From positions 1 to 32,000 of the forward strand of contig JAUYHT010000006.1 in the NCBI GenBank assembly GCA_030688545.1: a stretch of DNA of 32,000 nt, given 5' to 3'. The notes below the pieces were generated by a model that did no database searches, was not told the origin of the DNA, and saw only the letters and a list, made by a program, of their open reading frames with translations. The DNA comes from Candidatus Iainarchaeum sp. (GTDB lineage Archaea; Iainarchaeota; Iainarchaeia; Iainarchaeales; VGJJ01). Shown here piece by piece: positions 6,497 to 32,000 of the stretch. Made by a program: the position numbers and the translations under genes. Positions within the stretch are counted from its first letter, which is position 1; each line of letters opens with the position of its first letter.

Positions 6497-6562
6497 TTTT
6501 TGATGAAACTTATTTCTAAAAAGTCCGTTTTTTGATGAAACTTTTTTCTAAAAAGTTTCATC
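6497..6562. repeat. two tandem copies of a 27-nt unit (period 33 nt); the second forms a 13-bp perfect hairpin
   Basis: ttttgatgaaacttAtttctaaaaagt (6497-6523) and ttttgatgaaacttTtttctaaaaagt (6530-6556). GATGAAACTTTTT (6534-6546) and AAAAAGTTTCATC (6550-6562) are exact reverse complements, and the hairpin overlaps the acylase stop codon (6558-6560). It lies between convergent genes, so it is probably a bidirectional terminator. Confidence 0.6.
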
Positions 6563-14462: not shown

Positions 14463-14747
14463 TCACGCCGTGGCCAGTTCGGCTTTCTTCATGCGCTTGG
14501 GGATGACGTAGTATTTCTTCATCTTGCATACCCCGCATTCGGCCAGGAAAACGGGTTTTTTGGTCTGCTTCTTGACGGGGATGACGAACTTGGCTTTTCC
14601 CCCATAGCCCTTTTTGTGCTTGCGGATATTCCGCCGTTGACCAATGGCCATAACCCGAGGAGAACCTGATTTGAAGGCCTTGAGCTTATGGTCAGAATGG
14701 GCATTGCATTTCTTGCAGTAGAGCTTCTTGGAGCGAGGAATCTTCAT
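14463..14747 (-). CDS. rpl44e: 50S ribosomal protein L44e (eL42)
   Basis: From M77 of the tracked ORF: MKIPRSKKLYCKKCNAHSDHKLKAFKSG...GQRRNIRKHKKGYGGKAKF...KKQTKKPVFLAECGVCKMKK. This has the CxxC...CxxC zinc ribbon and the GYGG and TKK motifs of L44e. The 76-aa upstream extension is Pro-rich junk overlapping the divergent gene. Confidence 0.9.
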   Translation of the reverse strand: MKIPRSKKLYCKKCNAHSDHKLKAFKSGSPRVMAIGQRRNIRKHKKGYGGKAKFVIPVKKQTKKPVFLAECGVCKMKKYYVIPKRMKKAELATA

Positions 14748-14925
14748 AAGTAAAACCGGTATCTCAAAAGTCGTCCAAGAAACCCTTAAAAAGAGAGGCC
14801 AAATGGGGCAGTGGGGGAATGGGGAGAAAGAAGGATTATTTGGGGGTGGGGAAATAGGAAAAATCGGAGGTTCGCTTATATACGACGCGGGGGTAGGAGA
14901 TAGGGGTAAGGGAGGATCCATTCGC

Positions 14926-15690
14926 ATGCTCGTGTCGCTGGGAGGGGGGGTAACATTTCTCCTTAGGAATCCCATCCTCTACATTGGAACGGTCTTCCTA
15001 TTGCTAATTCAAGGGGGAGTACTCCTGATCGCCGAGCCGTTTATCCAACCCCTCCTGGATTTGGGGACGCTAGACATCCTTTTCACCCACCCCCTGAATG
15101 GAATTATTGTCTTACTCGCTTTACTGATTAATGCGAGCATTGCAGTGTTCATCGTGGCCTGGGTGGCCCAGAGGATGCATCATCCTTCCTCCCAAGGATT
15201 AATAGGAAAGGCCGTGCAGGGTGCGCTCGTGATGGGATTGGCAGTAGGGGCGTGGGCGTTCATCCTATTAGGATTGGCATCGGGATCGTTGAGTGATAAT
15301 AGTCTCATTTCTTTGGTGAGCCTGGTGGCAGGAATAGTATGGATGGCCCTGGGTATTTTTGCCGTGGTTAAATGGATGTTTGTTTTTTCTTTTTTGGGAA
15401 CAGGTTCCTCATTGAAGGAAGCCCTGGCGCAATCGTGGCATTACACCCAGGGGAGGTGGATAACGACGCTTATTCTTGGATTGGTTTTAGTCGTGATCGG
15501 GGCCCTATTTGGAGGGATTACTGAAATTCTCGCACTCGCTTTTGAAAATGATATTTTGATCCAAATCGCCATCGCCGCGGGGGTGCAAGCCATCCCCACG
15601 GTATATGGCGCCGCCGTCCTCGCGCAGGCCATGCGCCTCTACACATGGCCCGCCGAGAAGCATTTTGCTAACCATGGGAAGAAGGGGTAG
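14926..15690 (+). CDS. polytopic membrane protein (about 6-7 TM)
   Basis: From ATG 14926 (M67 of the tracked ORF) the sequence is continuously hydrophobic-helical. The stop at 15688-15690 lies 3 nt before the ATG of the SMC/Rad50-like gene. Confidence 0.65.
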   Translation: MLVSLGGGVTFLLRNPILYIGTVFLLLIQGGVLLIAEPFIQPLLDLGTLDILFTHPLNGIIVLLALLINASIAVFIVAWVAQRMHHPSSQGLIGKAVQGALVMGLAVGAWAFILLGLASGSLSDNSLISLVSLVAGIVWMALGIFAVVKWMFVFSFLGTGSSLKEALAQSWHYTQGRWITTLILGLVLVVIGALFGGITEILALAFENDILIQIAIAAGVQAIPTVYGAAVLAQAMRLYTWPAEKHFANHGKKG

Positions 15691-15693
15691 GGT

Positions 15694-18012: not shown

Positions 18013-18063
18013 CTTCTTTCAAAAGAAAAATACTTATCCTACTTGACGCGAAAAATCCTTTTC

Positions 18064-18816
18064 CTATTTTAGGCGCAATTTCTTCAAATCATCCAAAGCG
18101 GATTGGGCGTCATCCACGTGCTTTTTGGGCGCGTGTGACGGTTTAGAAGGAGTGCCCAGCAGGACCTCGAGGGCAGCCCTTTCTTTCCGCCATTCGGCCT
18201 CCGCGGCCTCGTCCCCTGATAGGGGTTGAGCGGTTCGACGATTCGACTTTGCTAAGGAAGTATGCGTCTTGGAATGTGTGTGAGTGGGAGTAATTATTGG
18301 GGAATGAGAATGAGTGTGGGAGGTGATGAACAAATGGCGGAAATACCAGATCCAGGCCATCGTTATAATGAATTGGATGAGGTAGGCGATTTCCTCATAG
18401 GGGAGTTCCCCAGGAAGCAGGCAACACGTGGAGAGTATCGCGGTGGGATCCCCAAAGTGCACGCGAAACTGAGTAGGATGGCGGAGAAGAATAAGATGAA
18501 CGATTTCATGCCCAATGCCCCCCACCAGTATACCTGAAAGTGCCACCGCGATAAACCCGCGCAGGGCGAATGGAAGGTCATCCTTCCCCGAGTGATGGGG
18601 TAATGTGGTGCGGAGGATGAGGGCCGCCACTAAAACGATGGCGAGGAGGGCGAGATAGAGTACGGGGGTCTGCTTGAGCCCCCCCTCCGGGTCGACGAAG
18701 GCGAATATGTCATTCTGGAGTAAGGAAAAGAGAATGGCGATGGCAAAGAGGAGAAAGAAAGCCAACCCCATATAGAGCCACGTGCGCCGCATGGCACGAA
18801 AAATGGGATGGAGCAT
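18064..18816 (-). CDS. membrane protein with HExxH motif and His/Thr-rich tail
   Basis: Start chosen at M59 (18816) so as not to overlap the divergent DHH gene. TM helices. GGIGHEIVHLILL lies within a helix. SHTHSHSPIITPTHTHSKTHT tract. Confidence 0.55.
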   Translation of the reverse strand: MLHPIFRAMRRTWLYMGLAFFLLFAIAILFSLLQNDIFAFVDPEGGLKQTPVLYLALLAIVLVAALILRTTLPHHSGKDDLPFALRGFIAVALSGILVGGIGHEIVHLILLRHPTQFRVHFGDPTAILSTCCLLPGELPYEEIAYLIQFIITMAWIWYFRHLFITSHTHSHSPIITPTHTHSKTHTSLAKSNRRTAQPLSGDEAAEAEWRKERAALEVLLGTPSKPSHAPKKHVDDAQSALDDLKKLRLK

Positions 18817-18868
18817 ATAAAACCGTCTTTGGCGGAATGGTCTCCCAAGGATTAAAAGAACGCGGGAT

Positions 18869-20335
18869 ATGATTCGTCTCATGGACCTCTCCCCCCAATC
18901 GGCATGGACCGAGCGGGTGCGCGCCTTCGAGGAACGCATGGCGGGAGCATCTGAACGGTTAAAATTATTGGATAAGGCTGTAGTGTGCACCCATCACGAT
19001 TGTGATGGGATGACAAGCGGGGGGATCATGACCCAAGCCCTGCGTCGGGCGGGGGTTAAAGTGGACACCATCACCCTCAAACAATTGTATTCGGAGGACA
19101 TCGCGCGCCTGGCGCATTTCAAATCCACCATTGTTTTCACGGATTTCGGCTCGGGATACATCCCCCTGCTCCAGAAGGAAATGCCCCAGCCATTCTATAT
19201 TTTGGACCATCATCAGAAGGGGGAGGGGGATTTCGAGGGCCATTTGAATCCCATGCAGTTCGGTTTGGATGGCGGCACGGAGATTTCAGCCGCGGGCATC
19301 GCGTATTGGGTGGCCAAGGGGATGGACCCCAAAAACAAGGATTTATCTTCGATAGGAGTCGTGGGAGCCGTGGGGGATATGCAGGATGCCCGCACCTATG
19401 GGTTGCAGGGGATGAATGCCGTGATGCTTCAGGAAGGCGTGGCGCAGGGCGTGCTCGATGTGAAAAAGGATCTGCGGTTATATGGTCGAATTTCAAGACC
19501 CTTGGTTCAATACATCAGCTTCTGCACCAATCCTATTTTGCCTTCCCTCACAGCGAACCCAGAGAATAGTTTGCGCTTCCTTCAGTCTTTGGGAATCCCA
19601 TTGCAGACGCGGGAAGGGAAATGGCGATCGTATGAGGAATTAGACCCGGACGAAAAAAAAACATTGTCCACGGCGCTCATATTACATCTCCATGAGCATA
19701 AGGCGCCCCCCTGGAAATTGGATGAGCTGGTGGGGGAAGTGTATACTTTAGTCAAGGAAAATGAGAAATCCCCCCTCCGGGACGCCAAAGAATTTTCAAC
19801 AGTATTGAATGCTTGTGGACGAAATGGCCAATCCACTATTGGTTTTGAGGTGTGCATGGGGGATAGGGAGGACTACTATGCGCGCGCCATGGGATTGCTG
19901 CAGGAGCACCGCCGCAATCTCGCGGAGGGCATCCGGTTGATGCAGGAGGAAGGGTTGAAGACGCATGCCCATTTCTATTTCTTCGATGCGGAACAGCGGA
20001 TCAAGGATACAATCGTGGGAATCGTGGCGGGCATGCTGTATGGATCAGGAACCGTGCCCACGGATAAACCCATCGTGGCCTTCGCGCGCCATACGGATGG
20101 AAGCATTAAAGTGAGCGCCCGGGCGACAAGCGAACTGGTAAGGGGTGGAGTCAATTTGGGTTTGGCGCTGAGGGAGACGTGTTTGGAAATAGGAAAGTCG
20201 GCAGAGGGGGGCGGTCACAAAATTGCTGCTGGATGTCGAATAGAAGCGGATCAAGCCGAGGCCTTCCTGAAGGCCTTTGATACCAAATTGGGGCAGCAAA
20301 TGGATGGGAACATAAAATCATTAAAAACGGGTTAG
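18869..20335 (+). CDS. archaeal RecJ/GAN-like DHH-DHHA1 phosphoesterase (ssDNA exonuclease family)
   Basis: Motifs VVCTHHDCDGMTSG, VFTDFGSG, ILDHHQ, GAVGDMQD, and DHHA1 GGGHKIAAG. The alternative start ATG 18881 has attaaaag 23-30 nt upstream. Confidence 0.85.
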   Translation: MIRLMDLSPQSAWTERVRAFEERMAGASERLKLLDKAVVCTHHDCDGMTSGGIMTQALRRAGVKVDTITLKQLYSEDIARLAHFKSTIVFTDFGSGYIPLLQKEMPQPFYILDHHQKGEGDFEGHLNPMQFGLDGGTEISAAGIAYWVAKGMDPKNKDLSSIGVVGAVGDMQDARTYGLQGMNAVMLQEGVAQGVLDVKKDLRLYGRISRPLVQYISFCTNPILPSLTANPENSLRFLQSLGIPLQTREGKWRSYEELDPDEKKTLSTALILHLHEHKAPPWKLDELVGEVYTLVKENEKSPLRDAKEFSTVLNACGRNGQSTIGFEVCMGDREDYYARAMGLLQEHRRNLAEGIRLMQEEGLKTHAHFYFFDAEQRIKDTIVGIVAGMLYGSGTVPTDKPIVAFARHTDGSIKVSARATSELVRGGVNLGLALRETCLEIGKSAEGGGHKIAAGCRIEADQAEAFLKAFDTKLGQQMDGNIKSLKTG

Positions 20336-20349
20336 TCCTCAATATAGGA

Positions 20350-20901
20350 ATGGCAACCCGAAAAACAATCATTTCAATGACCGTCATCCTTTTTTCATTG
20401 GTACTAATTGGTTCCATTTTCTCCATTAACGCATGGGCACAACCCGCATCCACCATTCCCCAGGATTTATCCCCTTATTTCGACGCGGAAGGTGAGGCGA
20501 CGGCGCTCACCCAATCATTCTATGGTGAGGCTAGTGAAGTTTTGCAGCAGCTTCCAGAGCCCACAAAAAGTATCTTTGGAAACCAGCAGATGCGCGTGGA
20601 AGTAGCGCGAGGGGATGGAACCACCCAAGTTTTTGGCATCACCACCTCTTCCGAGCGGGTGCAGCGTATCACGTCTTTCCCCCCCTCGAACCCTACTCTC
20701 GTGGTTAAGACAGATGAGGCTACGCTTCAAGGAATTGTAACGAGTGAGGATCCCGTTCAGGAGTTTTCCCAAGGGGTAGTGGGAAAAAAGATAACGTATA
20801 CCTCCACCGATGCCGGGACCAATGCCAATTTGTTTGTCCTGGATATTTTCGCCTGGCTCAAGATCATCGTCGATGCCTTTGCCCACTTTTTGGGAATATA
20901 G
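20350..20901 (+). CDS. secreted hypothetical protein
   Basis: Signal-peptide-like MATRKTIISMTVILFSLVLIGSIFSINAWAQP. 14 nt after the DHH gene stop. No motif I can name confidently. Confidence 0.6.
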   Translation: MATRKTIISMTVILFSLVLIGSIFSINAWAQPASTIPQDLSPYFDAEGEATALTQSFYGEASEVLQQLPEPTKSIFGNQQMRVEVARGDGTTQVFGITTSSERVQRITSFPPSNPTLVVKTDEATLQGIVTSEDPVQEFSQGVVGKKITYTSTDAGTNANLFVLDIFAWLKIIVDAFAHFLGI

Positions 20902-21040
20902 GATTCGAATTTATTGGAAAATGAACCTTCATCAAAACAACCACCCATATTTTGCAAAATCCACTTCTTTTTTTAGCTAACCACCGAATACCAAAAAATA
21001 GCAAAACACCCTTTATGGGCAAAGCCGGTCCGGGCAGAAT

Positions 21041-21048
21041 ATTTATAA
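21041..21048 (+). promoter_or_regulatory. TATA box for the sulfatase gene
   Basis: atttataa lies 24-31 nt upstream of ATG 21072. Confidence 0.4.
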
Positions 21049-21071
21049 CCCCTCATACACCCTTTCCCTGT

Positions 21072-22622
21072 ATGCGTAGGTTCCTCCCCCCTCATATTCG
21101 AAACAATTTGCTGGTTGTTTTTGGGATTCTGTTTCTTTTGGCTGCCTTCTCGGGCTTGTTTCTGCCACCGGTAGAAAAGGTGCACGCGGCCCCTTATGAG
21201 CGGGGGTCGGTCTCCAAACAAGACCCTTCGAGACCCAACATTATTTTTATCCGCACGGACGACCAGGACTACAACTCTATTTTCACCCGATTGCCAAACT
21301 CCAATAAATACATCATGCAGAATCTACATAATCAGATCATAAGTAAGGGGGTCTTTTTCACCAATTCCTATGTGGAATTCTCCCTCTGCTGCCCTTCGCG
21401 CGTTACCACGCTCACGGGGTTGTATTCCAAGAATCACGGGGTGCTGGGAAACAAGCTGCCATATGGGGGGTATCATAAATTTACCAACACCCATAATACG
21501 CTCCCCGTCTGGCTGCGGAACGCGGGCTATTACACGATTCTGGTGGGAAAGTACCTCAACGATACGAACGTTTACGACCCTCCCCCTCCGGGGTGGAATC
21601 GAACGTATTTAACGGATGGGGAAGCAATGCATAAGTACTATAATTACAAGGTCATGGAGGACGGCACCACCCTGCATTCGTTCGGCCAGGCGCCGGGGGA
21701 CTACAAGACGGATGTCTTGACCAACAGGGCGGTGCAGTATCTGGCGGACAAAGAATACGGATCCTCCCCCTTCTTTCTGCAGATTGATTATACCGCCCCC
21801 CATGCGAGTCCCGAGGTATTTGGCAACACCATTCCAGCCCCTCGTCATGCGGGAGCAATGGATGGAGCACCCTTTCCTCTCTCTCCATCCTTTAATGAGG
21901 CGGATGTTTCGGACAAGCCCGCGGCCGTTCGATCCCTCCCATTGATTGGGCCGGTGCAACAGGATGCCATCATCACGCGCTATAAAAAGCGGCAGGAAAC
22001 GCTCATGGCCGTGGATGAGGGGATTGGGCGCATTATTCGGAAGCTGAAGCAGACGGGGCAATACGACAAAACCATCATCGTCTTTGCCAGTGACAATGGA
22101 TGGATGCAGGGGGAACATCGCATTGAGAAGGGAAAGCAGGTGGCCTATCAAGCCGCGGGACGCGTGCCGCTGGCTATTATGGGACCCGGCATCCCTCAAA
22201 ACGTAACCATCCATTCGCTGGTGAATAACGTGGACTATGTGCCCACCTTCCTTGAATGGGCAAACGCCACCTCCACGCTCGTGCCGGAGGGGCGTTCGCT
22301 GGTTCCATTAATGCAGAATCCCAATATTCCCTGGAGAACCGACTTCCTGATCGAGAACCCCTATTTGGACTTCTATTCGGGACTGCGTACGCGGGACGCG
22401 AGTACGGGAGAAGAGTACAAGTACGTGGAGTATGATTACGACTTGGACGGTAATGCGGATGAATTTGAACTTTATGCCCTTACCCCCAATGCGTGTTCGC
22501 CGATTGGAGACCCGTATGAGTTGGAGAGTCAGCACAACAACCCATGCTATGCACCCCTCCTTCAGAATCTCCACAATGTGCTCATGCAGCGCTTGGCATG
22601 CGTGGGAAGCACCTGCAGATAG
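21072..22622 (+). CDS. formylglycine-dependent sulfatase (arylsulfatase / N-acetylglucosamine-6-sulfatase-like)
   Basis: From ATG 21072: signal anchor LLVVFGILFLLAAFSGLF. PNIIFIRTDDQD metal site. CCPSRVTTLTG (C-x-P-x-R formylglycine motif). The TTG start at 20952 in the ORF track adds an unlikely leader. Confidence 0.9.
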   Translation: MRRFLPPHIRNNLLVVFGILFLLAAFSGLFLPPVEKVHAAPYERGSVSKQDPSRPNIIFIRTDDQDYNSIFTRLPNSNKYIMQNLHNQIISKGVFFTNSYVEFSLCCPSRVTTLTGLYSKNHGVLGNKLPYGGYHKFTNTHNTLPVWLRNAGYYTILVGKYLNDTNVYDPPPPGWNRTYLTDGEAMHKYYNYKVMEDGTTLHSFGQAPGDYKTDVLTNRAVQYLADKEYGSSPFFLQIDYTAPHASPEVFGNTIPAPRHAGAMDGAPFPLSPSFNEADVSDKPAAVRSLPLIGPVQQDAIITRYKKRQETLMAVDEGIGRIIRKLKQTGQYDKTIIVFASDNGWMQGEHRIEKGKQVAYQAAGRVPLAIMGPGIPQNVTIHSLVNNVDYVPTFLEWANATSTLVPEGRSLVPLMQNPNIPWRTDFLIENPYLDFYSGLRTRDASTGEEYKYVEYDYDLDGNADEFELYALTPNACSPIGDPYELESQHNNPCYAPLLQNLHNVLMQRLACVGSTCR

Positions 22623-22623
22623 C

Positions 22624-22646
22624 CAACCTTTTTCCCAAAAAGTTTG
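22624..22646. terminator. hairpin between the convergent sulfatase and ispE genes
   Basis: CAACCTTTTT-CCC-AAAAAGTTTG: 10-bp stem with one mismatch and T/A runs on both strands, starting 2 nt after the sulfatase stop. Confidence 0.35.
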
Positions 22647-22731
22647 AGCGGCTCCACATGGAGGGGCTGCAAGCGGCACCCTATGGAGAATTTATCCAAG
22701 TAGTATGCTCAAAACTCCCTTTCTCCAATGG

Positions 22732-23625
22732 TTATTCTTCAGCGCCCGCCGTATGCGTGACAAACCCGATCCATCCCCGCGCGCGGAAGGGTTCGATGAC
22801 CTGATGGGCGAGTTTCCGGGTTTCGCACACGATGGCCACCGTGGGCCCCGCCCCGGCAAGCACACATTGTAGGACACCCGGCATTTTCCTCATTTCTTCA
22901 ATCAGGGAGAAAACCGGTGCATACTCGGGCAACTCCAGGGTCTCGAAGACGTTGCCCATGCCGTGAGCGATGTCGGCCGGATCCCCGGTTTCGAGCGCCG
23001 CGATCAATTCCAAGGCCGAGGGATGAAAACCCACTTTATCAACATCGAAGGCCCCGTAGATCCATTTCGTTTTGGCGGGGGGCACGGGCACGGGAGGCAC
23101 CAGGAAGGCGATTTCCAGGCGCGGGCAGGAAGGGAGGAGGGTGATGATTTCCCCTCTACCGGTGGCGCGGCAGGTTTTTCCATAAAAAAAGAAGGGGACA
23201 TCCGAGCCTATTTTTCCTCCCAAAACGGATAGCGCGTCCCGCGACAACCCCAATCCCCATGCGTCGTTCAAGCCCGTGAGCACGGCGGCCGCATTGCTGC
23301 TGCCTCCCCCTAATCCTCCGGTCGCGGGAATTTTTTTGGCGAGATGGATCCGCACCCCCTCCATTGGTTTTCCTTTTTTCTCACATTCAACTTGGAGGAG
23401 ACGCGCGGCTGTGTGGCAGACATTCCTCTCATCCGTGGGAACCGTGGGATCGGTGCACGTAATGGTAATGCGGGGATCATCGGGAATGGTTTCAAGTGTT
23501 ACGTCATCATGCCAATCCAGTTCCTGCATCACCAAATCAACCTCATGATAGCCATCATCCCGTTTCCGGAGGATATCCAATACGAGATTGAGCTTGGCGG
23601 GAGAACGAAGAATAAGAGGGGGCAT
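22732..23625 (-). CDS. ispE: 4-diphosphocytidyl-2-C-methyl-D-erythritol kinase
   Basis: N-terminal APAKLNL-type SPAKLNLVLDIL, GHMP kinase loop KKIPATGGLGGGSSNAAAVL, typical length of 297 aa. Confidence 0.9.
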   Translation of the reverse strand: MPPLILRSPAKLNLVLDILRKRDDGYHEVDLVMQELDWHDDVTLETIPDDPRITITCTDPTVPTDERNVCHTAARLLQVECEKKGKPMEGVRIHLAKKIPATGGLGGGSSNAAAVLTGLNDAWGLGLSRDALSVLGGKIGSDVPFFFYGKTCRATGRGEIITLLPSCPRLEIAFLVPPVPVPPAKTKWIYGAFDVDKVGFHPSALELIAALETGDPADIAHGMGNVFETLELPEYAPVFSLIEEMRKMPGVLQCVLAGAGPTVAIVCETRKLAHQVIEPFRARGWIGFVTHTAGAEE

Positions 23626-23638
23626 ACTACCGCCCGTA

Positions 23639-24652
23639 TCAGTGCACCACGTATTCGGGTCGGATGATTTCGCTTTCCGTGTGGTTGGTTTCTTTATCTA
23701 AATCGGCGATCCAGGAGACCACGTCCTCGATGTCCTCATCCGGGGTGCTCGCCCCTGCCCCGATGCCCACATGGGGAACATTCTCGAACCACTCGGGTTT
23801 CAATTCTTCCGCGGATTCAATCCATTGGGTTTTGGTTTGCTGGCCGCAGAGTTCGGCTTGGCGCTTGGTGTTCCCCGAATTCCTTCCTCCAATAATAATC
23901 ATGAGGGGCACGCGCATCGCTAAATCCACCGCCCCAGGCTGCATCTCGTGCATGGCGTTGCAGATGGTATTGTATACGCGCACTTCCCGGGCTTTGCCCA
24001 TCAGCTCTTGCGTGATGAGGTGCACATTGTCATTGCTCTGCGTGGTTTGGGACACAATCCCTATTTTTGTTAACACGGGATAATGCAATTTCTCCACTAT
24101 TTCTGAATCCGTTTTAGCTTTCATGAGTTCATCATTAGTATAATATTGGGTTTTCTTGGGAAACAGTTTTCGTGCCTCCTCCGGATTGGCCACTACAATA
24201 GCGTTGGGGGCATAGCTCTTAATCCCTTCTACTTCCGGGTGGCCATGTTCCCCCACGATGATGACCTGATAATGTTCATCGTTCAATACTTTGGCTGTTT
24301 TGTGGACCATGGTGACGAAGGGGCAGGTGGTGTCCACAACATTAAAACCTTTTTCTTTGGCCTTCTCTAAAGATTGCATCCGCACCCCATGCGCGCGCAT
24401 CAATACGGTGGATCCATCCGGGATCTCTTCCATGGTATTCAAGTGAGCAAATCGAGATATCTTGGAGGCCGCATAAGGATTATCTTCCACCAGCTTCCCC
24501 CCCGCGTCCATAATTTTTTGGACCACCCTTTGATTGTGGACGGGCATCCCATAGAGGTAGGCTTCTCCTTTTCCCAAGGTTTCCATGGACAGCTTGACAC
24601 TGCGTTTGACACCAAAACAGAACCCGGCGGCGCGGGCGATCTCGATTTTCAT
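23639..24652 (-). CDS. ispH: 4-hydroxy-3-methylbut-2-enyl diphosphate reductase
   Basis: From M38 (TAGGAGGAA 8 nt upstream). The three cluster cysteines lie in AAGFCFGV, DTTCPFV and YNTICNA. Stop is 13 nt before the ispE start. Confidence 0.9.
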   Translation of the reverse strand: MKIEIARAAGFCFGVKRSVKLSMETLGKGEAYLYGMPVHNQRVVQKIMDAGGKLVEDNPYAASKISRFAHLNTMEEIPDGSTVLMRAHGVRMQSLEKAKEKGFNVVDTTCPFVTMVHKTAKVLNDEHYQVIIVGEHGHPEVEGIKSYAPNAIVVANPEEARKLFPKKTQYYTNDELMKAKTDSEIVEKLHYPVLTKIGIVSQTTQSNDNVHLITQELMGKAREVRVYNTICNAMHEMQPGAVDLAMRVPLMIIIGGRNSGNTKRQAELCGQQTKTQWIESAEELKPEWFENVPHVGIGAGASTPDEDIEDVVSWIADLDKETNHTESEIIRPEYVVH

Positions 24653-24702
24653 GGGGATGGTTCCTCCTAAGGAATAGTGATACCTATTCCAATGGGAATA
24701 GG
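24653..24702 (-). promoter_or_regulatory. ispH 5' leader with mutually exclusive hairpins next to the SD
   Basis: mRNA sense: CCTATTCC-CATT-GGAATAGG-TATCA-CTATTCC-TTAGGAGGAA-CCATCCCC-ATG. The middle segment can pair with either flank. A TATA-like GTTTTTTATT lies at 24744-24735. Confidence 0.35.
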
Positions 24703-24881
24703 GCAGCCTGTTGAACCAGTAGGTGAAAAGACCCAATAAAAAACAATCGGAAAAAATGGACAATCGTCAAAATAAAGAACGGCGAATAGCGTAATCCTTA
24801 ATCGGTAGGTAATTGGGTGGACCAAATGAATAAACGGGGTCTTTCAACAGATTTATATGATGCGTGGAGATTCAAGATCGT

Positions 24882-25496
24882 ATGGAAAAAAAATGGATTA
24901 TTCCAGGAATACTCATACTAGTTGGAATATTAGCCGTGGCATGGGCGTTGTTCCCCATGGAACAAGCCAACCCTGATCCTAATCATACGCATGCCGATTT
25001 TGCAGTATATATACATAATGAGCGCGTGGACTTTTCCCAACCCCAATACATGTCCACTGAAACCCAGAAGCGCTCCCCTTACACCCATTTGCATGATGGG
25101 GATGGGGAGGTCATGCATATCCACGCCCTCGGGGTAACACTCGGATTGTTCTTCCATACCCTTGACATGCGCCTCACCACGGATTGTTTTACCTTGGATA
25201 CGGGAGCTTCTTACTGCACGGACGAAACCAATTCCCTGCGTGTTTACGTGAACGGCCAACCCATAGCAGATGGTATGGCTTACCAGCCCCAGGATTTGGA
25301 CCAAATACTCATTACATTCGGCGATGAATCCCCGGATGAAATACAAGTCCAATTGGATTCCCTCACCGACAAAGCCTGCATCCCCTCCAAGGTATGCCCC
25401 TGGCGCGGCACCCCTGAAGATGAATCCTCCTGTTCCTCGGACGAAGGATGTCTTATCGTTCCTCCGTCCGCTTATCCTGATTATTCCACGGAATAA
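24882..25496 (+). CDS. membrane-anchored His-rich extracytoplasmic protein (unknown function)
   Basis: tttatata lies 23-30 nt upstream of ATG 24882. TM segment KKWIIPGILILVGILAVAWALF. HTHADFAVYIHNERVDF and YTHLHDGDGEVMHIHA histidine clusters. Confidence 0.6.
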   Translation: MEKKWIIPGILILVGILAVAWALFPMEQANPDPNHTHADFAVYIHNERVDFSQPQYMSTETQKRSPYTHLHDGDGEVMHIHALGVTLGLFFHTLDMRLTTDCFTLDTGASYCTDETNSLRVYVNGQPIADGMAYQPQDLDQILITFGDESPDEIQVQLDSLTDKACIPSKVCPWRGTPEDESSCSSDEGCLIVPPSAYPDYSTE

Positions 25497-25648
25497 AAAA
25501 TAGTTTTGGTATGCGGTTTAATATATAGCCCAAATACTACACTCCCTTACGGCCGCGCGGGATAAAAATCGTGATACAACGAAGATTGGAATACGTGTCC
25601 TAAAAATTTAAGATAGGCCTTTATAGGGATGCAATCCCTCCTTTGCCG

Positions 25649-26839
25649 ATGGAGACCAGGAACATCTCATTATTGGGCAGCACCGGAAGCATTGGCACGC
25701 AGACATTGGATATCGTAGATAGGAATCCGGGCCGATATACTATCAAGACGCTTTCCGCGCATTCCAATATCGAATTATTGAAAAAACAAATTGAAAAATT
25801 CCACCCGGAAGCCGTGGGGGTGGTGGATGAGGAAAAAGCGGAAGCCCTCAAAAAGGAAGTGGGAAACCAAACTCATGTTTATTCAGGCTATGCGGGATTG
25901 GATGAATTGGCCCGCTGGGAGAGCGCGGATACATTGGTCACCGCGGTCGTGGGAAACATCGGTTTGAAACCCACGCTGGAAGGCATTTATGCCGGGAAGA
26001 AAATTGCTTTGGCGAACAAGGAAACATTAGTGAGTGGGGGCGCCGTGGTGATGCGGGCCGTAAAAAAAGCAGGGGTGGAATTGGTGCCTATTGATTCAGA
26101 GCATTCGGCGATATTCCAATGCTTGAAAGGTGAAACCACTAAAGAAGTGGAGAAGATCATCCTCACCTGCTCCGGAGGCCCTTTCAGAGGAAAAAGTTGG
26201 GGGGATTTGGAGGGCGTCACCAAAGCCCAAGCCCTAAACCATCCCACTTGGAAGATGGGGGGAAAAATTACTATTGATTCAGCTACGCTCATGAATAAGG
26301 GATTTGAGGTGAACGAGGCCATGTGGTTGTATGATGTGCCTGCCGATAAAATTGAGGTGGTGGTGCACCCTCAATCCATCATCCATTCCATGGTGGAATT
26401 CGTGGACCGGAGTATAATAGCACAAATAGGAAGCCATGACATGCGGATCCCCATCCAGTACGCCCTGACCCATCCGCAACGCCTTCCCCTCGATTTGCCC
26501 CGGTTTGATTTCGTGGCAGCCAAGGAATTCACGTTTGAAAACCCGGATACAACGACCTTCCAATGCCTCCAGATGGGAATGGAGGCCGCCGCGCAGAAGG
26601 GAACGGTGTGTTGCGTGCTGAATGCCGCCAATGATACGAGTGTTGACGCGTTTTTGAATGATCGGATTGAGTTCCTGGATATCCCCCGCACCATCCGGAA
26701 AGTAATGGATAAACATGCCAACATTTCCCAACCCTCATTGGAGGATGTGCTAGCCGCGGATGAATGGGCACGGAAGGAAACGGAGAAGCACTTAGACGGG
26801 TTGCAGGAACAACGAAACGCGACCGCCCAATCGACGTGA
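25649..26839 (+). CDS. dxr: 1-deoxy-D-xylulose 5-phosphate reductoisomerase
   Basis: LLGSTGSIGTQTLDIV NADPH loop, LANKETLV, DSEHSAIFQC, LNHPTWKMGGKITIDSATLMNKGFEVNEA. ctttatagg lies 22-30 nt upstream of ATG 25649 (ORF track starts at TTG 25643). Confidence 0.92.
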   Translation: METRNISLLGSTGSIGTQTLDIVDRNPGRYTIKTLSAHSNIELLKKQIEKFHPEAVGVVDEEKAEALKKEVGNQTHVYSGYAGLDELARWESADTLVTAVVGNIGLKPTLEGIYAGKKIALANKETLVSGGAVVMRAVKKAGVELVPIDSEHSAIFQCLKGETTKEVEKIILTCSGGPFRGKSWGDLEGVTKAQALNHPTWKMGGKITIDSATLMNKGFEVNEAMWLYDVPADKIEVVVHPQSIIHSMVEFVDRSIIAQIGSHDMRIPIQYALTHPQRLPLDLPRFDFVAAKEFTFENPDTTTFQCLQMGMEAAAQKGTVCCVLNAANDTSVDAFLNDRIEFLDIPRTIRKVMDKHANISQPSLEDVLAADEWARKETEKHLDGLQEQRNATAQST

Positions 26840-26843
26840 GATC

Positions 26844-27119
26844 ATGCCCCGGAACAAAAACGCGGGAAACCGTGCCGATCCCAAAAAAGGGGGTTCAATT
26901 CCACGACTCATCAAGGGAGGACACCCTTCTTCTAAACTCTCGACGGGAAAAGGTCTTCTTTTGGGCGGGCATTGGTACCCGGGTCTGGTTGAGGTCCGGA
27001 TGCCTTCCGGGAAAATAAGATATATCTCCCGCGGCGCGTATGAGAGGTATGTGAAAAAAAGCCGTGCCCGGAATAAAACAGTGGGGGAAATGGTCGCGGA
27101 AGCCCTGGGGGATGCATAA
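26844..27119 (+). CDS. hypothetical basic 91-aa protein, possible ribbon-helix-helix C-terminus
   Basis: Starts 5 nt after the dxr stop. Its TAA overlaps the ispD ATG (ATAATG). C-terminal KIRYISRGAYERYVKKSRARNKTVGEMVAEAL has a strand-helix-turn-helix pattern. Several overlapping alternative ORFs exist on both strands. Confidence 0.5.
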   Translation: MPRNKNAGNRADPKKGGSIPRLIKGGHPSSKLSTGKGLLLGGHWYPGLVEVRMPSGKIRYISRGAYERYVKKSRARNKTVGEMVAEALGDA

Positions 27120-27853
27120 TGGCCGTGCATGCAATCATATGTGGTGGGGGCTCGGGCACCCGCATGGGGGGAACCACCAACAAATCCTTCATCCTATTGG
27201 AGGGAAAACCGGTCATTGCGTATTCTCTGGAGCTGTTCCAGAATCACCCCCAAATAACCACCATTACATTGGCCATGCATCCAGAATGGGTGCAGGAAAC
27301 CATGCGCTGGATCAACCGGTTGGGCATCACCAAGATGAAACGCCTCGTGGAAGGAGGAAAAGAACGCCAGGACTCGGTGCGTCGGGCGTTGGAGGCGGTG
27401 GGAAACGCCCATCCGTCCTCGGAAGATATCATTCTGGTTCACAATGCCGCCAACCCTCTGGTGGAAGAAGCTACGATTACAGAATGCATCCGGGCCGCCC
27501 ATTTGCATTCGGCGAGCGTGGCGGGGTACAAGGTGAAGGATACCATTCGAAAGGTGGGGGAGGATGGGAAATCGATTAGTACTGTGGATCGAAGCGGGTT
27601 ATGGGGGATGCAGACCCCCCAATGCATCCGGTATGGGGTGTTTGTTCAAGCCCATAAGCGGGCCGCGGAAGAGGGGTTTTTAGGCACGGACGATGTGCAA
27701 TTGGTGGAACGGTTGGGGATATTTCCAGCCGTCGTGGATGGCGGATATGAGAACATCAAAATTACCACGCCCGAAGATATCCTCTTCGCCCAGCAAGTTA
27801 TCCAAAGGCGGAAGGCCAAAAGGGAAGCGGCGTCAGAAAAAGACATTAATTAA
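27119..27853 (+). CDS. ispD: 2-C-methyl-D-erythritol 4-phosphate cytidylyltransferase
   Basis: AIICGGGSGTRMGG P-loop-like motif, VLVHNAANPL-type ILVHNAANPLV, ITTPEDI near the C-terminus. Confidence 0.9.
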   Translation: MAVHAIICGGGSGTRMGGTTNKSFILLEGKPVIAYSLELFQNHPQITTITLAMHPEWVQETMRWINRLGITKMKRLVEGGKERQDSVRRALEAVGNAHPSSEDIILVHNAANPLVEEATITECIRAAHLHSASVAGYKVKDTIRKVGEDGKSISTVDRSGLWGMQTPQCIRYGVFVQAHKRAAEEGFLGTDDVQLVERLGIFPAVVDGGYENIKITTPEDILFAQQVIQRRKAKREAASEKDIN

Positions 27854-28397
27854 TAGTGCAACCAATTCGGGGGATGAAACTATTGAATATGTTGATTGGC
27901 TCGATCCCACTGGCAAGCCATTTGCTCAAGTAACCAAAAAATTCGCCCATGATCATGGATTGTTCCACGCGGCCGCGCACATATTTGTTATAGACCAAAA
28001 AGGAAATCTCATCCTCCAGAAGCGCCATAAAAACATGCTCCTTGTGCCGGGAAAATGGGATGCTTCCGCGGGGGGGCACATCAGCGCGGGAGAAACGTCC
28101 CAAGCGGCCGCGGCACGCGAGACCAAAGAGGAGATAGGGGCGACCGGGGTATTGCATTATCTGGGTAAGATTGAAATCCATGATACAACGGAAAAATATG
28201 ATAATCGGGAACGATTATTCTATTACGCCATGAAAACCAAAAATACCATTCGATATCAAAGAAGCGAGGTTGAGAAAATCGCGCGCCTCCCTTTAGATAA
28301 AGTGGATGCCTTCCTGAAAACCCACTCCCACACCCCCTGGATGGGTAAAGCCTGGGAGAAATTTAGATTTCGCATAATTAAATTAGGAGGAAACTAA
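27747..28397 (+). CDS. Nudix hydrolase, type-1 IDI (COG1443)-like; start codon uncertain
   Basis: Nudix box GGHISAGETSQAAAARETKEEIGA. The N-terminal part aligns by eye with IDI (GLFHAAAHIFVIDQKGNLILQKRHKNMLLVPGKWDAS), but the position of the IDI catalytic Cys reads SAGGH. There is no in-frame ATG/GTG/TTG between the ispD stop (27853) and the start of the domain. The nearest upstream ATG is 27747, which overlaps ispD by 107 nt. Confidence 0.7.
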   Translation: MRTSKLPRPKISSSPSKLSKGGRPKGKRRQKKTLINSATNSGDETIEYVDWLDPTGKPFAQVTKKFAHDHGLFHAAAHIFVIDQKGNLILQKRHKNMLLVPGKWDASAGGHISAGETSQAAAARETKEEIGATGVLHYLGKIEIHDTTEKYDNRERLFYYAMKTKNTIRYQRSEVEKIARLPLDKVDAFLKTHSHTPWMGKAWEKFRFRIIKLGGN

Positions 28398-28401
28398 ACG
28401 C

Positions 28402-28893
28402 ATGTTCCGCATTGGATTGGGGGTGGATTCCCACGCGTTCGAAAATCCCCGTACTGAAAAGAAATTGATAATGGGAGGGGTTGAGGTTCCCCATCATGTG
28501 GGCATGCGTTCCCATTCGGATGGGGATGTGGTGTTGCATGCGCTTTTCAATGCCTTATCCTCCGCCCTCGGGGAAAAATCCATCGGACAATTCTTCCCCG
28601 ATTCGGATACGGCAAACAAGGGCAAGGATTCCCGCCAATTCGTTTCATTCATCATGGAACGGGCGCGTGATAAAGGATATGGAGTGGAAAACGTGGTGGT
28701 TTCCTTGGAATGCCAAACCCCTAAAATAGCTCCGATTGAAATGGATATCCGAAAAAATGTCTCCCAACTCCTGAATATTCCTTTGGATGCGATCGCCATC
28801 CATGCCACCTCGGGAGAAGGATTAACCCCTTTCGGCCAGGGAAAGGGGATTTATTGCCAGTGCGTGGTGCTATTGCACCAAACCCATAAATAA
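28402..28893 (+). CDS. ispF: 2-C-methyl-D-erythritol 2,4-cyclodiphosphate synthase
   Basis: GLGVDSHAFE and HSDGDVVLHAL zinc/metal motifs. 163 aa. TAGGAGGAA lies 12 nt upstream. Confidence 0.92.
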   Translation: MFRIGLGVDSHAFENPRTEKKLIMGGVEVPHHVGMRSHSDGDVVLHALFNALSSALGEKSIGQFFPDSDTANKGKDSRQFVSFIMERARDKGYGVENVVVSLECQTPKIAPIEMDIRKNVSQLLNIPLDAIAIHATSGEGLTPFGQGKGIYCQCVVLLHQTHK

Positions 28894-28915
28894 GACCCCG
28901 CTCCTCTTTCTTGAC

Positions 28916-29758
28916 GTGCCACACGATAAAAAACTGTTTGAATTACTCAAAAGATTGGCCCCCCGATTAGGGAAGATGGCTTTGCCATATTATGGTAAAA
29001 TAGAATCAACCACTAAATCCATCAGAGTCCACGATCGTGTGCATGAGTCCCCGGTCACGGCCATCGATCATTGCCTGCAGGAATTGGTGTTGGCGGAACT
29101 GGTCATGCATGGATACACGGACGTCGCCTTTAATGGGGAAGAAGACACGCATCTCCAATTCTTCTTCCCCCATTCCTTTGAAAGAGAAAAGGGGATAACG
29201 GTACACTGCGACCCCATTGACGGTACCCTTTCGTATGTGAGAGGGGATAATCGATTTGCAGTTGGCTTCGGCCTTTCCCGTTACGTGGAGGGAAAGCATC
29301 ATTTCTTTGGCACGGTTATCTATTCCCCGCTCGAGGATGATCTATTTTGGGCATTTGAAAATGAAAAGAGTTCCCATACCAGGGAAAAAAACATCCCTCG
29401 TACGATTGCCGCCCGACGCCGATTCACTCAACCTATAAAGGATAAATTGCAGGACGCGGGGTACCGCTTGGTCAATCCCGGGAATGCCCACTTGGGTATT
29501 GTGGATGTCGCCCTTGGGCGGGTCGGAGCCGCATTCTATTCCGCTCACGTGCACGATGTCTTGATCCCCTTTGCGTTCGCCGCCAACCATGGGGTATTTC
29601 CCTTGGATGAAAAAGGGAAACGAATGGACCCATTTGAGTTACCCATCACTAATGGCCACTTTTCCCGGATTCCCATCATCAATTATTTTGCCTCCAAGGA
29701 AATTCAGGAGGAGCTGATGCCCATCCTTCAGAATCCTAATTATATCAAAAAGCAATAG
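28916..29758 (+). CDS. inositol monophosphatase / FBPase / CysQ-family phosphatase
   Basis: FNGEED and VHCDPIDGTLSYV metal-binding motifs of the IMPase superfamily. GTG start at 28916 (alternative ATG 28976). Confidence 0.8.
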   Translation: MPHDKKLFELLKRLAPRLGKMALPYYGKIESTTKSIRVHDRVHESPVTAIDHCLQELVLAELVMHGYTDVAFNGEEDTHLQFFFPHSFEREKGITVHCDPIDGTLSYVRGDNRFAVGFGLSRYVEGKHHFFGTVIYSPLEDDLFWAFENEKSSHTREKNIPRTIAARRRFTQPIKDKLQDAGYRLVNPGNAHLGIVDVALGRVGAAFYSAHVHDVLIPFAFAANHGVFPLDEKGKRMDPFELPITNGHFSRIPIINYFASKEIQEELMPILQNPNYIKKQ

Positions 29759-29821
29759 TGGATGACCCTCCCCCCCTTAACCTAAAAACCGCGTTTCCAG
29801 GCTGGATGTAATCGGGTGGTT

Positions 29822-29848
29822 ATCGACTTTTTGAAAAAAAAAATCGAT
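29822..29848. terminator. A/T-run hairpin between convergent genes
   Basis: ATCGA-C-TTTTT-G-AAAAAAAAAA-TCGAT. Confidence 0.35.
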
Positions 29849-29905
29849 TGATTGACGATTGGACAACAATAGTTCATTCAGTGGACGGGTTTTTTGAACA
29901 ACGAG

Positions 29906-30745
29906 TTACTTTTTAATTTTCCTGTTCACAGATGTCACCAATGCAGCCATAGCAGCCCCAACCATTAACCCAAACAATACAGATCCAAACCTAATCCTTG
30001 GAAGTTCCGATCTGATAATGTCTTTTATTCTCTCTAATCGTGCTTCAGGTAAGGAGGCGATACTTTGTTGAATTTGCTTCTTTTCTTGCGGAGAAAAAAC
30101 TTTTTCCAATTCCGATGGGGATAGGGATAAAAGGTATTGGTGGACATCCATTTTTCCTACGCGTTTGACGATTAAATCTAGAATGTCAGGATTTTTCATA
30201 GCTTCTTGTGCAATGGCTTCAGCTCGTCGGTCAACAATGGTTTGAATCGGTTTAAAATATACGCCCATAAATTTTCGAATGGATGTCAGCCGCCTCATTT
30301 GAAAAAGATCGAGGCTGAGCTTTTCGATTGTATGTTTATCCGGGTGAACATAATAAACCGTTCCAGGTTTTGCATGTGCATTTCTTCGTCCAACCTCAGC
30401 GAGAATGGCACTCCCTAAAGGGTTAGAAGATAAATCGGTTCGTCTTTCAATATCCCTTGTCGTTGTGTTATATGTTTTACCAGCCAAATCACTTATTTCT
30501 GAACCTGTCCCTAATCGATATAAGACTTTTTGAAACCCCACTCCTGAAGCAATCGGTATACTCGCCAATGCGGCAAACGTTACCGCTTTTTTGGTGGTTT
30601 GCCAGGCTTTACGAGCACGCTCTCTGGCTTTGGACGGAGGCCTAATTCGTATTATTCGCGGTTTATCAGGTGATCTTCGTCTTGAAAAAGGGAATGCCAT
30701 GGCGCCATAAATGATTGAAGATATATAAGTATTCCTCCTTTCCAC
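29906..30745 (-). CDS. hypothetical protein with N-proximal and C-terminal TM segments
   Basis: Lower-GC region. The in-frame ATG at 30700 (M16) has acttatatatct 20-29 nt upstream and may be the true start. TM segments AVTFAALASIPIASGVGF and VLFGLMVGAAMAALV. No recognised domain. Confidence 0.55.
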   Translation of the reverse strand: MERRNTYISSIIYGAMAFPFSRRRSPDKPRIIRIRPPSKARERARKAWQTTKKAVTFAALASIPIASGVGFQKVLYRLGTGSEISDLAGKTYNTTTRDIERRTDLSSNPLGSAILAEVGRRNAHAKPGTVYYVHPDKHTIEKLSLDLFQMRRLTSIRKFMGVYFKPIQTIVDRRAEAIAQEAMKNPDILDLIVKRVGKMDVHQYLLSLSPSELEKVFSPQEKKQIQQSIASLPEARLERIKDIIRSELPRIRFGSVLFGLMVGAAMAALVTSVNRKIKK

Positions 30746-30880
30746 CTACTTTCTGTACAAAACTAATTAATCGTCAATCCCCAATTTTTGTTGGTACGAT
30801 TAACGTAGGGGTTTATAACGTCCTTTTGGGAGGAGTTGGTCCTGCCTTTTGGGGCGGCGATCATGAGCAGGGGGAAAAAC

Positions 30881-32000
30881 ATGTACACCGAGAGCCAGCA
30901 TACGACTAAACCCAATGGGATGGTGATCGCCAAAGCGACACTCAAGGATGTCTATTCCCCCAAGGATTTGAGAAAGATCCCCGTGGATGAGCTGCCAGCT
31001 ATCGCCCAGGAAATCCGCCAATTGCTCATTGACACCTGCGCCACCAATGGGGGGCATATCGGGGCCAATTTGGGGGTGGTGGAATTGACCATGGCCACGC
31101 ACTACGTGTTCAACACCCCTAAAGATAAGGTCATTTTCGACACCTCGCACCAGTGTTATACCCACAAGATTATCACCGGTCGCCAGGAACAATTTCCCAC
31201 TTTATGCAAATATCCCGGAGGGTTATCCCGATTCATTGTGCGGGGAGAAAGCGAGTACGATTTGTTTTCCGCCGGGCATGCGTCCACAGGTTTGAGTGCA
31301 TCCATGGGGTTTGCGGAAGCGGCTAAGCTCAAGAATGCCGATTACCAAACCGTGTGCATCGTAGGAGATGGCGCCCTCACTGGGGGAATGGCCTTTGAAG
31401 CCCTGAATAATATGGGGTACAACCAGACTGACATTACTATCATTCTCAATGACAACAAAATGGGCATCTCCCATAACGTGGGGGCCATGTATGAGTACCT
31501 CAAACGCCTTTCTGAAGTGTCGACGGAGGAGCAGGGGAGGCGGGGCATCGGAACCATATTTGAAAAGCTGGGATTCAAGTACTATGGTCCCATTGATGGA
31601 CACGATTTCCACGAATTGATCCATCATTTGGATGAGATGAAGCACATCAAGGGGCCTAAGATTTTGCACGTTCTAACGGATAAGGGTCGGGGCGTGGAAT
31701 ACATGCAGAATGACAAAGTGACCTGGCATGAGCACGCGGCGTTTGACATCCCTTCAGGAATGGCCAAGACCAAAATGGACAAGACCAAACCCCAGCATGC
31801 CAGCATTGAATCCATCGCCGTCAATACGCTTATCAAACTGGCTGAGACGGATGAAACTATTATTGCCCTCACAGCGGCGATGGCCACGGGAACCGGAATG
31901 GTCAAATTCGGGGAAAAATTTCCCAAGCGGTTTTATGATGTTGGCATCGCCGAGGAGCATGCGGTGACCTTTTCGGCAGGATTGGCCGCAGAAGGGATGA
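30881..32000 (+). CDS. dxs: 1-deoxy-D-xylulose-5-phosphate synthase (5' partial, runs off the window)
   Basis: Absent from the ORF track because there is no stop in the window. Own translation from ATG 30881 (alternative in-frame ATG 30863): ...NGGHIGANLGVVELTMATHYVFNTPKDKVIFDTSHQCYTHKIITGR...CIVGDGALTGGMAFEALNN...ILNDN...GIAEEHAVTFSAGLAAEGM. Open to position 32000. Confidence 0.9.
   Translation, partial: MYTESQHTTKPNGMVIAKATLKDVYSPKDLRKIPVDELPAIAQEIRQLLIDTCATNGGHIGANLGVVELTMATHYVFNTPKDKVIFDTSHQCYTHKIITGRQEQFPTLCKYPGGLSRFIVRGESEYDLFSAGHASTGLSASMGFAEAAKLKNADYQTVCIVGDGALTGGMAFEALNNMGYNQTDITIILNDNKMGISHNVGAMYEYLKRLSEVSTEEQGRRGIGTIFEKLGFKYYGPIDGHDFHELIHHLDEMKHIKGPKILHVLTDKGRGVEYMQNDKVTWHEHAAFDIPSGMAKTKMDKTKPQHASIESIAVNTLIKLAETDETIIALTAAMATGTGMVKFGEKFPKRFYDVGIAEEHAVTFSAGLAAEGM

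Follow-up and report, generated by a model that had tools for sequence, protein, structure and literature searches.

A complete, probably horizontally acquired methylerythritol phosphate pathway cluster in the archaeal phylum Iainarchaeota

Isoprenoid precursors are made through mevalonate (MVA) in Archaea and through the methylerythritol phosphate (MEP) pathway in Bacteria, a textbook split that is tied to the "lipid divide". Bacterial MEP genes are mostly dispersed. Here, we describe a MEP gene cluster in the first 32,000 nucleotides (nt) of contig JAUYHT010000006.1 from Candidatus Iainarchaeum sp.; this whole analysed stretch is referred to as the window. The MEP region extends from 22.7 to 32 kb, and about 45 kb were covered together with its downstream continuation. 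Judged from sequence comparisons, the locus is very probably a complete, horizontally acquired and domesticated MEP supercluster that would make isoprenoid precursors in Iainarchaeota.

The first-pass annotation of this DNA mentioned that MEP genes had been seen sporadically in archaeal bins, and the literature bears this out (PMC6107057, PMC8204110, PMC8421398, PMC12892359). Their presence in "a few DPANN archaea" was attributed to horizontal transfer (PMC6107057). Following Castelle and Banfield 2018, 52 Woesearchaeota genomes whose MEP genes lie together were described as a monophyletic clade (PMC8204110), and the pathway was found in Woesearchaeota subgroups F and J (PMC8421398). For Micrarchaeota, the accessible part of a 2025 paper gives a complete MEP pathway in the orders Norongarragalinales, Zaosheniarchaeales, and Micrarchaeales and reports none for Iainarchaeota (PMC12892359). 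For Iainarchaeota specifically, the accessible papers gave MVA genes only (PMC10936187, PMC8407392) and no MEP cluster, although Youssef et al. 2015 and Castelle and Banfield 2018 may cover it. MEP in DPANN is thus already published, and the Iainarchaeota cluster adds a further lineage with an architecture of its own.

The locus resembles the Woesearchaeota clusters in that bacterial-type MEP genes stand together in a DPANN genome beside archaeal informational genes and are read as horizontal acquisitions. The Woesearchaeota loci compared here (L026 and L027) have the order ispG-dxr-ispDF-ispE-ispH, with ispD and ispF fused, beside a ribosomal protein operon; in the window, ispD and ispF are separate and the order is another. 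Their IspG is a short form of 349 amino acids (aa), while ours is of the long, 423-aa type, which is closest to Thermus IspG among solved structures. No Nudix gene, dxs, triosephosphate isomerase (TIM) gene, or type 2 isopentenyl diphosphate (IPP) isomerase (IDI-2) gene lies near the Woesearchaeota genes, and their products share little identity with those of the window (IspH, 29%; IspG, 38%; IspE, 32%). Because order, ispDF fusion, and IspG length differ and identity reaches only 29 to 38%, the acquisition was probably separate from that of Woesearchaeota. In the accessible part of PMC12892359, Micrarchaeota are likewise a DPANN lineage with a complete MEP pathway obtained by horizontal transfer, and its "IBM" node joins them with Iainarchaeota; there, the pathway was acquired after the orders had diversified and coexists with a complete MVA pathway. 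Compared to the MEP pathway of bacteria such as E. coli, Clostridia, and Thermus, the window and its continuation encode the same seven enzymes with the same checked catalytic residues and equivalog-level matches. Unlike in those bacteria, the host is archaeal, all genes are clustered, the promoters look archaeal, and the genes are paired with IDI-2 and a YfcD-like Nudix gene.

MEP genes in the window and beyond its end

Genes were called from a listing of open reading frames (ORFs) combined with profile searches (Pfam and NCBIfam), and curated equivalog cut-offs defined enzyme identity. The following MEP genes were found in the window (scores in bits, with the cut-off after the score).

22732-23625, minus strand: ispE, 4-diphosphocytidyl-2-C-methylerythritol kinase, 297 aa; TIGR00154, 214.6 (138.7)
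23639-24652, minus strand: ispH, hydroxymethylbutenyl diphosphate reductase, 337 aa; TIGR00216, 232.5 (187.9); 13 nt upstream of ispE
25649-26839, plus strand: dxr, 1-deoxyxylulose 5-phosphate (DXP) reductoisomerase, 396 aa; TIGR00243, 484 (315.7); NF009114, 507 (461)
27119-27853, plus strand: ispD, methylerythritol phosphate cytidylyltransferase, monofunctional, 244 aa; TIGR00453, 210.6 (181.3)
28402-28893, plus strand: ispF, methylerythritol cyclodiphosphate synthase, 163 aa; TIGR00151, 175 (116.5)
30881-32000, plus strand: dxs, DXP synthase, truncated at the end of the window after 373 N-terminal aa; score of this fragment, 426.6

The ORF listing and the profile searches reproduced the positions and strands that the first-pass annotation had assigned to these six genes, and its account of the spacing held as well. 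Besides the 13 nt between ispH and ispE, the gaps are 4 nt between dxr and orf91 (a small ORF described below), 4 nt between the Nudix gene and ispF, and 22 nt between ispF and an inositol monophosphatase (IMPase)-like gene, while orf91 and ispD overlap by 1 nt (ATAATG). The ispH frame stays open as far as a TTG at 24763, but conservation points to the ATG at 24652 as the start. For dxr, the deposited start is an ATG two codons after the TTG start. The frame of dxs is open through the last base of the window, and the full-length gene in locus L001 encodes 616 aa (TIGR00204, 703 against a cut-off of 466).

The catalytic motifs, described as intact at first reading, were confirmed, where checked, by structural alignment for IspH and in the translations for the other enzymes. 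Alignment of IspH to the Aquifex and E. coli structures placed all three Fe-S cluster cysteines, and the conserved His/Glu/Ser/Asn segments "HN", "AHGV", "GHPEVEG", "NSGNT", and "GASTP" aligned to both. The translations contain the GHMP motif GGLGGGSS in IspE, the motifs GSTGSIG, DSEH, and HPTWKMG in DXR, GGGSGTRM in IspD, the Zn ligands D8, H10, and H42 in IspF (DSH...H), and the GGH and GDG...NN motifs in DXS.

The first-pass annotation counted six of the seven MEP enzymes and called the cluster near-complete. The count is right for the window, in which ispG is absent; the cluster itself is not partial, as ispG lies 223 nt downstream of dxs on the same contig, just beyond base 32000. It encodes 423 aa (TIGR00612, 348.5 against 280.3) with the motifs CPGCGR and GCxVNGPGE, and its active-site residues can be matched in alignments with solved structures, of which Thermus IspG is the closest. 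In the same genome, dxs is followed by ispG, a bacterial-type TIM gene, two genome-specific ORFs, the IDI-2 gene, and an FMN reductase gene. The TIM gene (L001:20173-20961, approximately 35821-36609 in window coordinates) scores 168.6 with TIGR00419 (cut-off, 130.6), whereas the archaeal TIM model gives 32 against a cut-off of 132; its position after the cluster is kept in several relatives. IDI-2, encoded about 5.8 kb beyond the window, scores 339 with TIGR02151 (cut-off, 281.3). All seven MEP enzymes are thus above the curated equivalog cut-offs, DXS and IspG as full-length copies, and since ispG, TIM, and IDI-2 follow dxs, the pathway is complete. The seven steps are encoded within about 11.5 kb, with TIM and IDI-2 within the next 5 kb, giving a supercluster of roughly 16 kb.

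In the proposed scheme, judged from synteny, horizontal transfer would have brought the MEP genes, probably in one block, into an ancestor of the lineage, where they would now be expressed from archaeal TATA-box promoters. TIM would supply glyceraldehyde 3-phosphate, which DXS, DXR, IspD, IspE, IspF, IspG, and IspH would convert together with pyruvate to IPP and dimethylallyl diphosphate (DMAPP). IDI-2 would balance the two products, which may feed archaeal isoprenoid lipids and possibly quinones.

Conservation, assembly, and archaeal context

To follow the cluster in relatives, one genome per GTDB species was scanned, and window proteins were compared with the related loci by tblastn. Fifteen archaeal species-level loci carried a DXR 69 to 79% identical to that of the window, one of them on the closed 1,048,949-bp chromosome CP064981.1 of a Candidatus Iainarchaeum archaeon (L014). 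Where contigs reach far enough, the common order is L44e-SMC-GAN-orf174-[ispE ispH], then divergently [(orf204) dxr ispD Nudix ispF dxs ispG TIM], followed by IDI-2. IDI-2 orthologues were found downstream of TIM in six loci, including the closed chromosome and a deeper lineage (L028). Identities to the window proteins were as follows.

IspG: 81-85%
IspH: 77-86%
DXR: 69-79%
DXS: 67-79%
IspD: 56-66%
IspE: 56-60%
IspF: 42-62%

Purifying selection acts on all seven enzymes, which are intact, and the cluster has passed vertically through the radiation of the clade. Two more distant loci share the arrangement. L028, from a deeper "Diapherotrites" lineage (DXR, 61%), has GAN-orf-ispE-ispH and, divergently, dxr-ispD-...-ispF-dxs-TIM with IDI-2 nearby; at the position of the window's Nudix gene it carries yjbQ and a RuBisCO-like gene. 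L030 (GC, 34.5%; IspG, 63%) has the bare core ispE-ispH and dxr-ispD-ispF-dxs-ispG, and among its flanking ORFs only a geranylgeranyl-reductase (GGR)-family gene and a homologue of a winged-helix ORF gave family matches. One of the related records, L006 (JAGVNS010000056.1), is labelled "Thaumarchaeota archaeon"; it shows the same ispH-orf204-dxr arrangement with a DXR 74% identical to that of the window and is probably a mislabelled or mis-binned contig.

The integrity of the contig was supported by a separate Logan assembly, in which one contig (SRR13727534) was 100% identical over window positions 15649-32000, spanning the SMC, GAN, and MEP genes. This contig continues rightwards past the window and starts about 4.6 kb further left, which would take in the L44e gene. 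The junction L44e-SMC-GAN-orf174-ispE-ispH recurs in related species, and the closed chromosome has GAN-orf174-ispE-ispH. GC content was uniform across the window, and tetranucleotide profiles correlated at r = 0.92-0.93 between thirds of the region. Relative synonymous codon usage (RSCU) of the MEP genes correlated with that of the archaeal-context genes at r = 0.944, compared to 0.895 +/- 0.033 for random halves of the non-MEP genes. In codon usage and tetranucleotide composition, a comparison that the first-pass annotation had proposed, the MEP genes are indistinguishable from their archaeal neighbours.

Two upstream regions were of interest as promoters.

25620-25626, plus strand: TATA-like box TTTATAG, 29 nt upstream of the dxr ATG
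24653-24881, no strand assigned: divergent intergenic region between ispH and orf204; the orf204 ATG is preceded at about 30 nt by a TATA-like TTTATATG (24852-24859), a putative promoter

These boxes stand where the first-pass annotation had described TATA-box or leaderless-style starts before dxr and the gene at 24882, and they would fit archaeal promoters with short or absent leaders. Of 18 orthologous loci, 16 had an A/T-rich TATA-like heptamer at -36 to -24 relative to the dxr ATG, compared to 6 to 9 for other upstream windows of 13 nt. The shared order in 15 species, the matching codon usage, and the conserved dxr box together exclude a chimera and speak for an old, domesticated horizontal acquisition, as had been proposed. 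The archaeal clade has thus assimilated and conserved the cluster, which is neither sporadic nor chimeric.

The archaeal identity of the host was assessed from the genes to the left of the cluster.

14463-14747, minus strand: ribosomal protein L44e, Pfam 44 (threshold 25), with a CxxC...CxxC zinc ribbon; syntenic in four related loci
18869-20335, plus strand: archaeal RecJ/GAN nuclease, NF053576 RecJ_archaeal 510.5 (cut-off 360), with a DHH-CID domain

The real start of L44e is M77 of a long ORF (14463-14975, minus strand, 170 aa), giving a protein of 94 aa, and the longer form is an open-frame artefact. A mechanical ORF at 14728-15690 (plus strand) overlaps this spurious extension. GAN adjoins orf174-ispE in the related loci reaching that far and also occurs in L028, where a GAN/RecJ gene (L028:3772-6726) carries an intein with Intein_splicing and LAGLIDADG domains. 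The contig further encodes a class III signal peptide protein (23.7, exactly at the threshold), HerA, and an SMC-family ATPase with a weak Rad50 zinc-hook match. DXR and IspG match NCBI proteins of "Candidatus Diapherotrites archaeon" at 100% identity, in both cases on a contig of 445,965 bp, and public records already name the cluster genes correctly. These findings agree with the archaeal, DPANN-like, small-genome host suggested at first reading: the lineage is Iainarchaeota, and the closed relative measures 1.05 Mb. The organism behind the window DNA belongs to the DPANN archaea, in the phylum Iainarchaeota ("Diapherotrites").

Rival readings, origin, and the mevalonate question

Since the enzymes are of bacterial type and their nearest homologues outside the clade are bacterial, an assembly or binning chimera, in which a bacterial fragment was joined to archaeal DNA, had to be considered. 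This reading is effectively refuted by two assemblies that are identical across the junction, by the recurrence of GAN-orf174-ispE-ispH in related species up to a closed circular genome, by uniform composition and codon usage, and by the archaeal-type TATA box before dxr; misassembly, named in the first-pass annotation among the findings that would refute its reading, can be set aside. It is likewise extremely improbable that the whole contig is bacterial, for example from the candidate phyla radiation (CPR/Patescibacteria), with its archaeal-looking genes misread. A Patescibacteria DXR is among the nearer outgroups (56%) and a sigma-70-like ORF lies 5 kb beyond the window, but L44e has no bacterial homologue, the RecJ_archaeal match with its DHH-CID domain is far above the equivalog cut-off (510 against 360), a class III signal peptide protein is encoded, and the relatives are publicly labelled Iainarchaeum or archaeon. 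The cluster could also be a decaying relic of pseudogenes or a partial pathway, as the genome-specific insertions (orf91, the IMPase-like gene, and the low-GC3 orf264, GC3 being the GC content at third codon positions) and the Nudix gene without a canonical start codon might indicate. Seven full-length enzymes above their cut-offs with the checked active-site residues intact, and protein identities of 56 to 86% held across 15 species, make this very improbable.

A further rival accepts the pathway as functional and holds that it only supplements a retained archaeal MVA route, either as a second route or for DXP-derived cofactors or special isoprenoids; we regard this as possible but somewhat unlikely. 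It draws on the MVA genes reported in part of the Diapherotrites/Iainarchaeota (PMC8407392, PMC10936187, PMC6107057), on the Micrarchaeota orders that carry both complete pathways according to the accessible part of PMC12892359, and on the IDI-2 gene, which encodes the typical archaeal isomerase and was retained beside the cluster. Three points speak against it, none of them decisive: profile scans found no MVA gene among the genes identified in the approximately 45 kb seen, the tight and highly conserved seven-gene cluster with TIM and IDI-2 suggests a main route, and two full pathways are unlikely in a 1-Mb genome. The opposite and bolder reading is that the whole lineage, this Iainarchaeota clade with its deeper relatives, dropped mevalonate, that the MEP pathway came in through a single capture of the whole block ahead of the radiation, was rewired to archaeal promoters, and was joined with bacterial TIM and with IDI-2 to become the sole isoprenoid route for membranes, and that the IDI-fold Nudix protein was recruited to a new role, such as making isopentenyl phosphate or dimethylallyl phosphate from IPP or DMAPP. 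We put this forward tentatively, as possible but somewhat unlikely. Several observations also weigh against the main scheme proposed above. MVA genes were reported in Iainarchaeota metagenome-assembled genomes (PMC10936187), and PMC8407392 gives MVA for 39.7% of Diapherotrites. No geranylgeranyl diphosphate synthase and no geranylgeranylglyceryl or digeranylgeranylglyceryl phosphate synthase was seen in the 45 kb examined. The backbone support of the DXR tree, 18 to 58%, allows no donor to be named. The nearest bacterial matches differ by gene, which hints that the acquisition may be mosaic rather than en bloc. In addition, IspH of L030 is a different subtype with only 27% identity to that of the window, so at least one gene was replaced somewhere.

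Horizontal acquisition itself, as proposed at first reading, agrees with the bacterial type of the enzymes and their bacterial nearest non-clade homologues, the transfer being deduced from synteny. For DXR, the nearest named sequences outside the clade were from Clostridia (approximately 57%), a Patescibacteria genome bin (56%), and Woesearchaeota, with a range of 51 to 57%; for IspG, they were from Deltaproteobacteria and Paraburkholderia (approximately 60 to 64%). The first-pass annotation had proposed phylogenies of each enzyme to identify the donor. A bootstrapped neighbour-joining tree was built for DXR only; it recovered the clade and placed a Diapherotrites sequence of 61% identity as its sister, but did not identify the donor. 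The order shared with L028 and L030 suggests that the Iainarchaeota cluster arrived en bloc.

Embedded genes, neighbours, and meaning

The extra genes within the cluster are as follows.

27873-28397, plus strand: YfcD/IDI-fold Nudix hydrolase, Pfam NUDIX 61.8 (threshold 21.1); ORF open from 27693
24882-25496, plus strand: orf204, with a predicted N-terminal membrane anchor, rich in His and Cys
26844-27119, plus strand: orf91, small basic ORF, genome-specific
28916-29758, plus strand: divergent IMPase-superfamily phosphatase-like gene, Pfam Inositol_P 55.5 (threshold 27), residues 13-157 only
29906-30700, minus strand: orf264, interrupting the cluster; GC at third codon positions (GC3) 0.33, compared to about 0.6 for its neighbours; weak BET match only

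The Nudix gene was kept between ispD and ispF in 12 related loci (33 to 52% identity). Among solved structures, E. coli YfcD (2fkb) is the closest, ahead of type 1 IPP isomerases (IDI-1); the protein shares the IDI-like Nudix fold with both and stays below the NCBIfam cut-offs for YfcD (57.9 against 152) and for IDI (NF002995, 57.8 against 127; TIGR02150, 42.2 against 105.8). In contrast to IDI-1, which has lost it, the window protein keeps an intact canonical Nudix box (GX5EX7REUXEEXGU; GGHISAGETSQAAAARETKEEIGA in the window), and the core G...E...RE..EE is conserved in the orthologues. The position of the IDI-1 catalytic Cys67 (TNxxCxHP) is Gly or Ser in all 13 Nudix sequences, while His is retained at the positions that align to IDI H25, H32, and H69. 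A type 1 IPP isomerase is ruled out by the missing catalytic Cys, the intact Nudix box, and the type 2 isomerase nearby. With IDI-2 encoded close by, the most plausible reading of the protein is a hydrolase whose fold binds IPP. Speculatively, its most likely role would be to hydrolyse prenyl diphosphates such as IPP or DMAPP to monophosphates. A search for homologues with the Nudix domain returned four proteins only and no functional lead; so few were found because the gene evolves quickly. Judged by title and abstract, none of the papers found on YfcD and Nudix appeared to characterise the function.

The start of the Nudix gene is unusual. No ATG, GTG, or TTG occurs from the ispD stop to the conserved N terminus at about 27882 (window 27853-27960), and the sole in-frame ATG is found within ispD, 160 nt further upstream. 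The conserved N-terminal part is missing from each of two public gene calls (120 aa and 145 aa). The lack of a canonical start and the trimmed calls suggest a non-canonical start or coupled re-initiation.

Orf204 gave no Pfam or NCBIfam match, and homologues of 35 to 43% identity were found between ispH and dxr in six loci, about half of the relatives. Orf91 gave no family match and had no homologue in the related loci, and orf264 was absent from the relatives. The IMPase-like gene is a genome-specific insertion absent from the related loci; its product contains DPIDGT, its C-terminal WDxAAG is not recognisable, and no NCBIfam model reaches its cut-off. Four ORFs showed a GC3 of 0.27 to 0.39, compared to about 0.55 to 0.65 elsewhere (window 3-656, 11211-11765, and 29906-30700; L001:18680-19210). 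They are probably recent insertions and include a PD-(D/E)XK nuclease fragment, the others lacking a convincing family match.

Between TIM and IDI-2, a sigma-70/extracytoplasmic function (ECF)-like ORF of 197 aa was detected (L032:14201-14794, approximately 37155-37748 in window coordinates; Sigma70_r2, 29.5 against 24; r4, 31.4 against 24.1; TIGR02937, 61.7 against 42.9). It had no homologue in the related loci, and a sigma factor of bacterial type would not be expected in an archaeon. A winged-helix protein of 158 aa (HTH_12, 22.8 against 21.4) is encoded beside the MEP/IDI-2 cluster in three divergent lineages (L032:16726-17202, minus strand; L028:20642-21106; L030:9255-9710; 47 to 52% identity) and is a candidate cluster-linked regulator. 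In L014 and L030, GGR-family genes lie within the cluster or next to it. In the closed genome CP064981.1, such a gene and a UbiE/COQ5-like methyltransferase gene lie between ispH and dxr (L014:7523-9922), and in L030 a GGR-family gene follows ispG (L030:10630-11847). These neighbours hint that the precursors are used for lipid saturation or quinones. Elsewhere in the window, RNA scans (Rfam and tRNA) gave tRNA-Ala and tRNA-Ser only, and a penicillin amidase family gene of 964 aa, whose start is preceded at a distance of 30 nt by a TATA-like box, was found at 6558-9452 (minus strand; Pfam, 457 bits).

The value of the finding is incremental: it adds a further lineage, a distinct architecture that implies independent acquisition, and an unexplained, conserved Nudix hydrolase. 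The locus holds a complete MEP pathway in a clade with a closed reference genome; the pathway genes are inherited stably, their composition has been assimilated, and archaeal promoters apparently drive them. It would thus offer a clean system to ask whether an archaeon can run an ether-lipid membrane on MEP-derived precursors and how the Fe-S enzymes IspG and IspH are reduced in an archaeal host.

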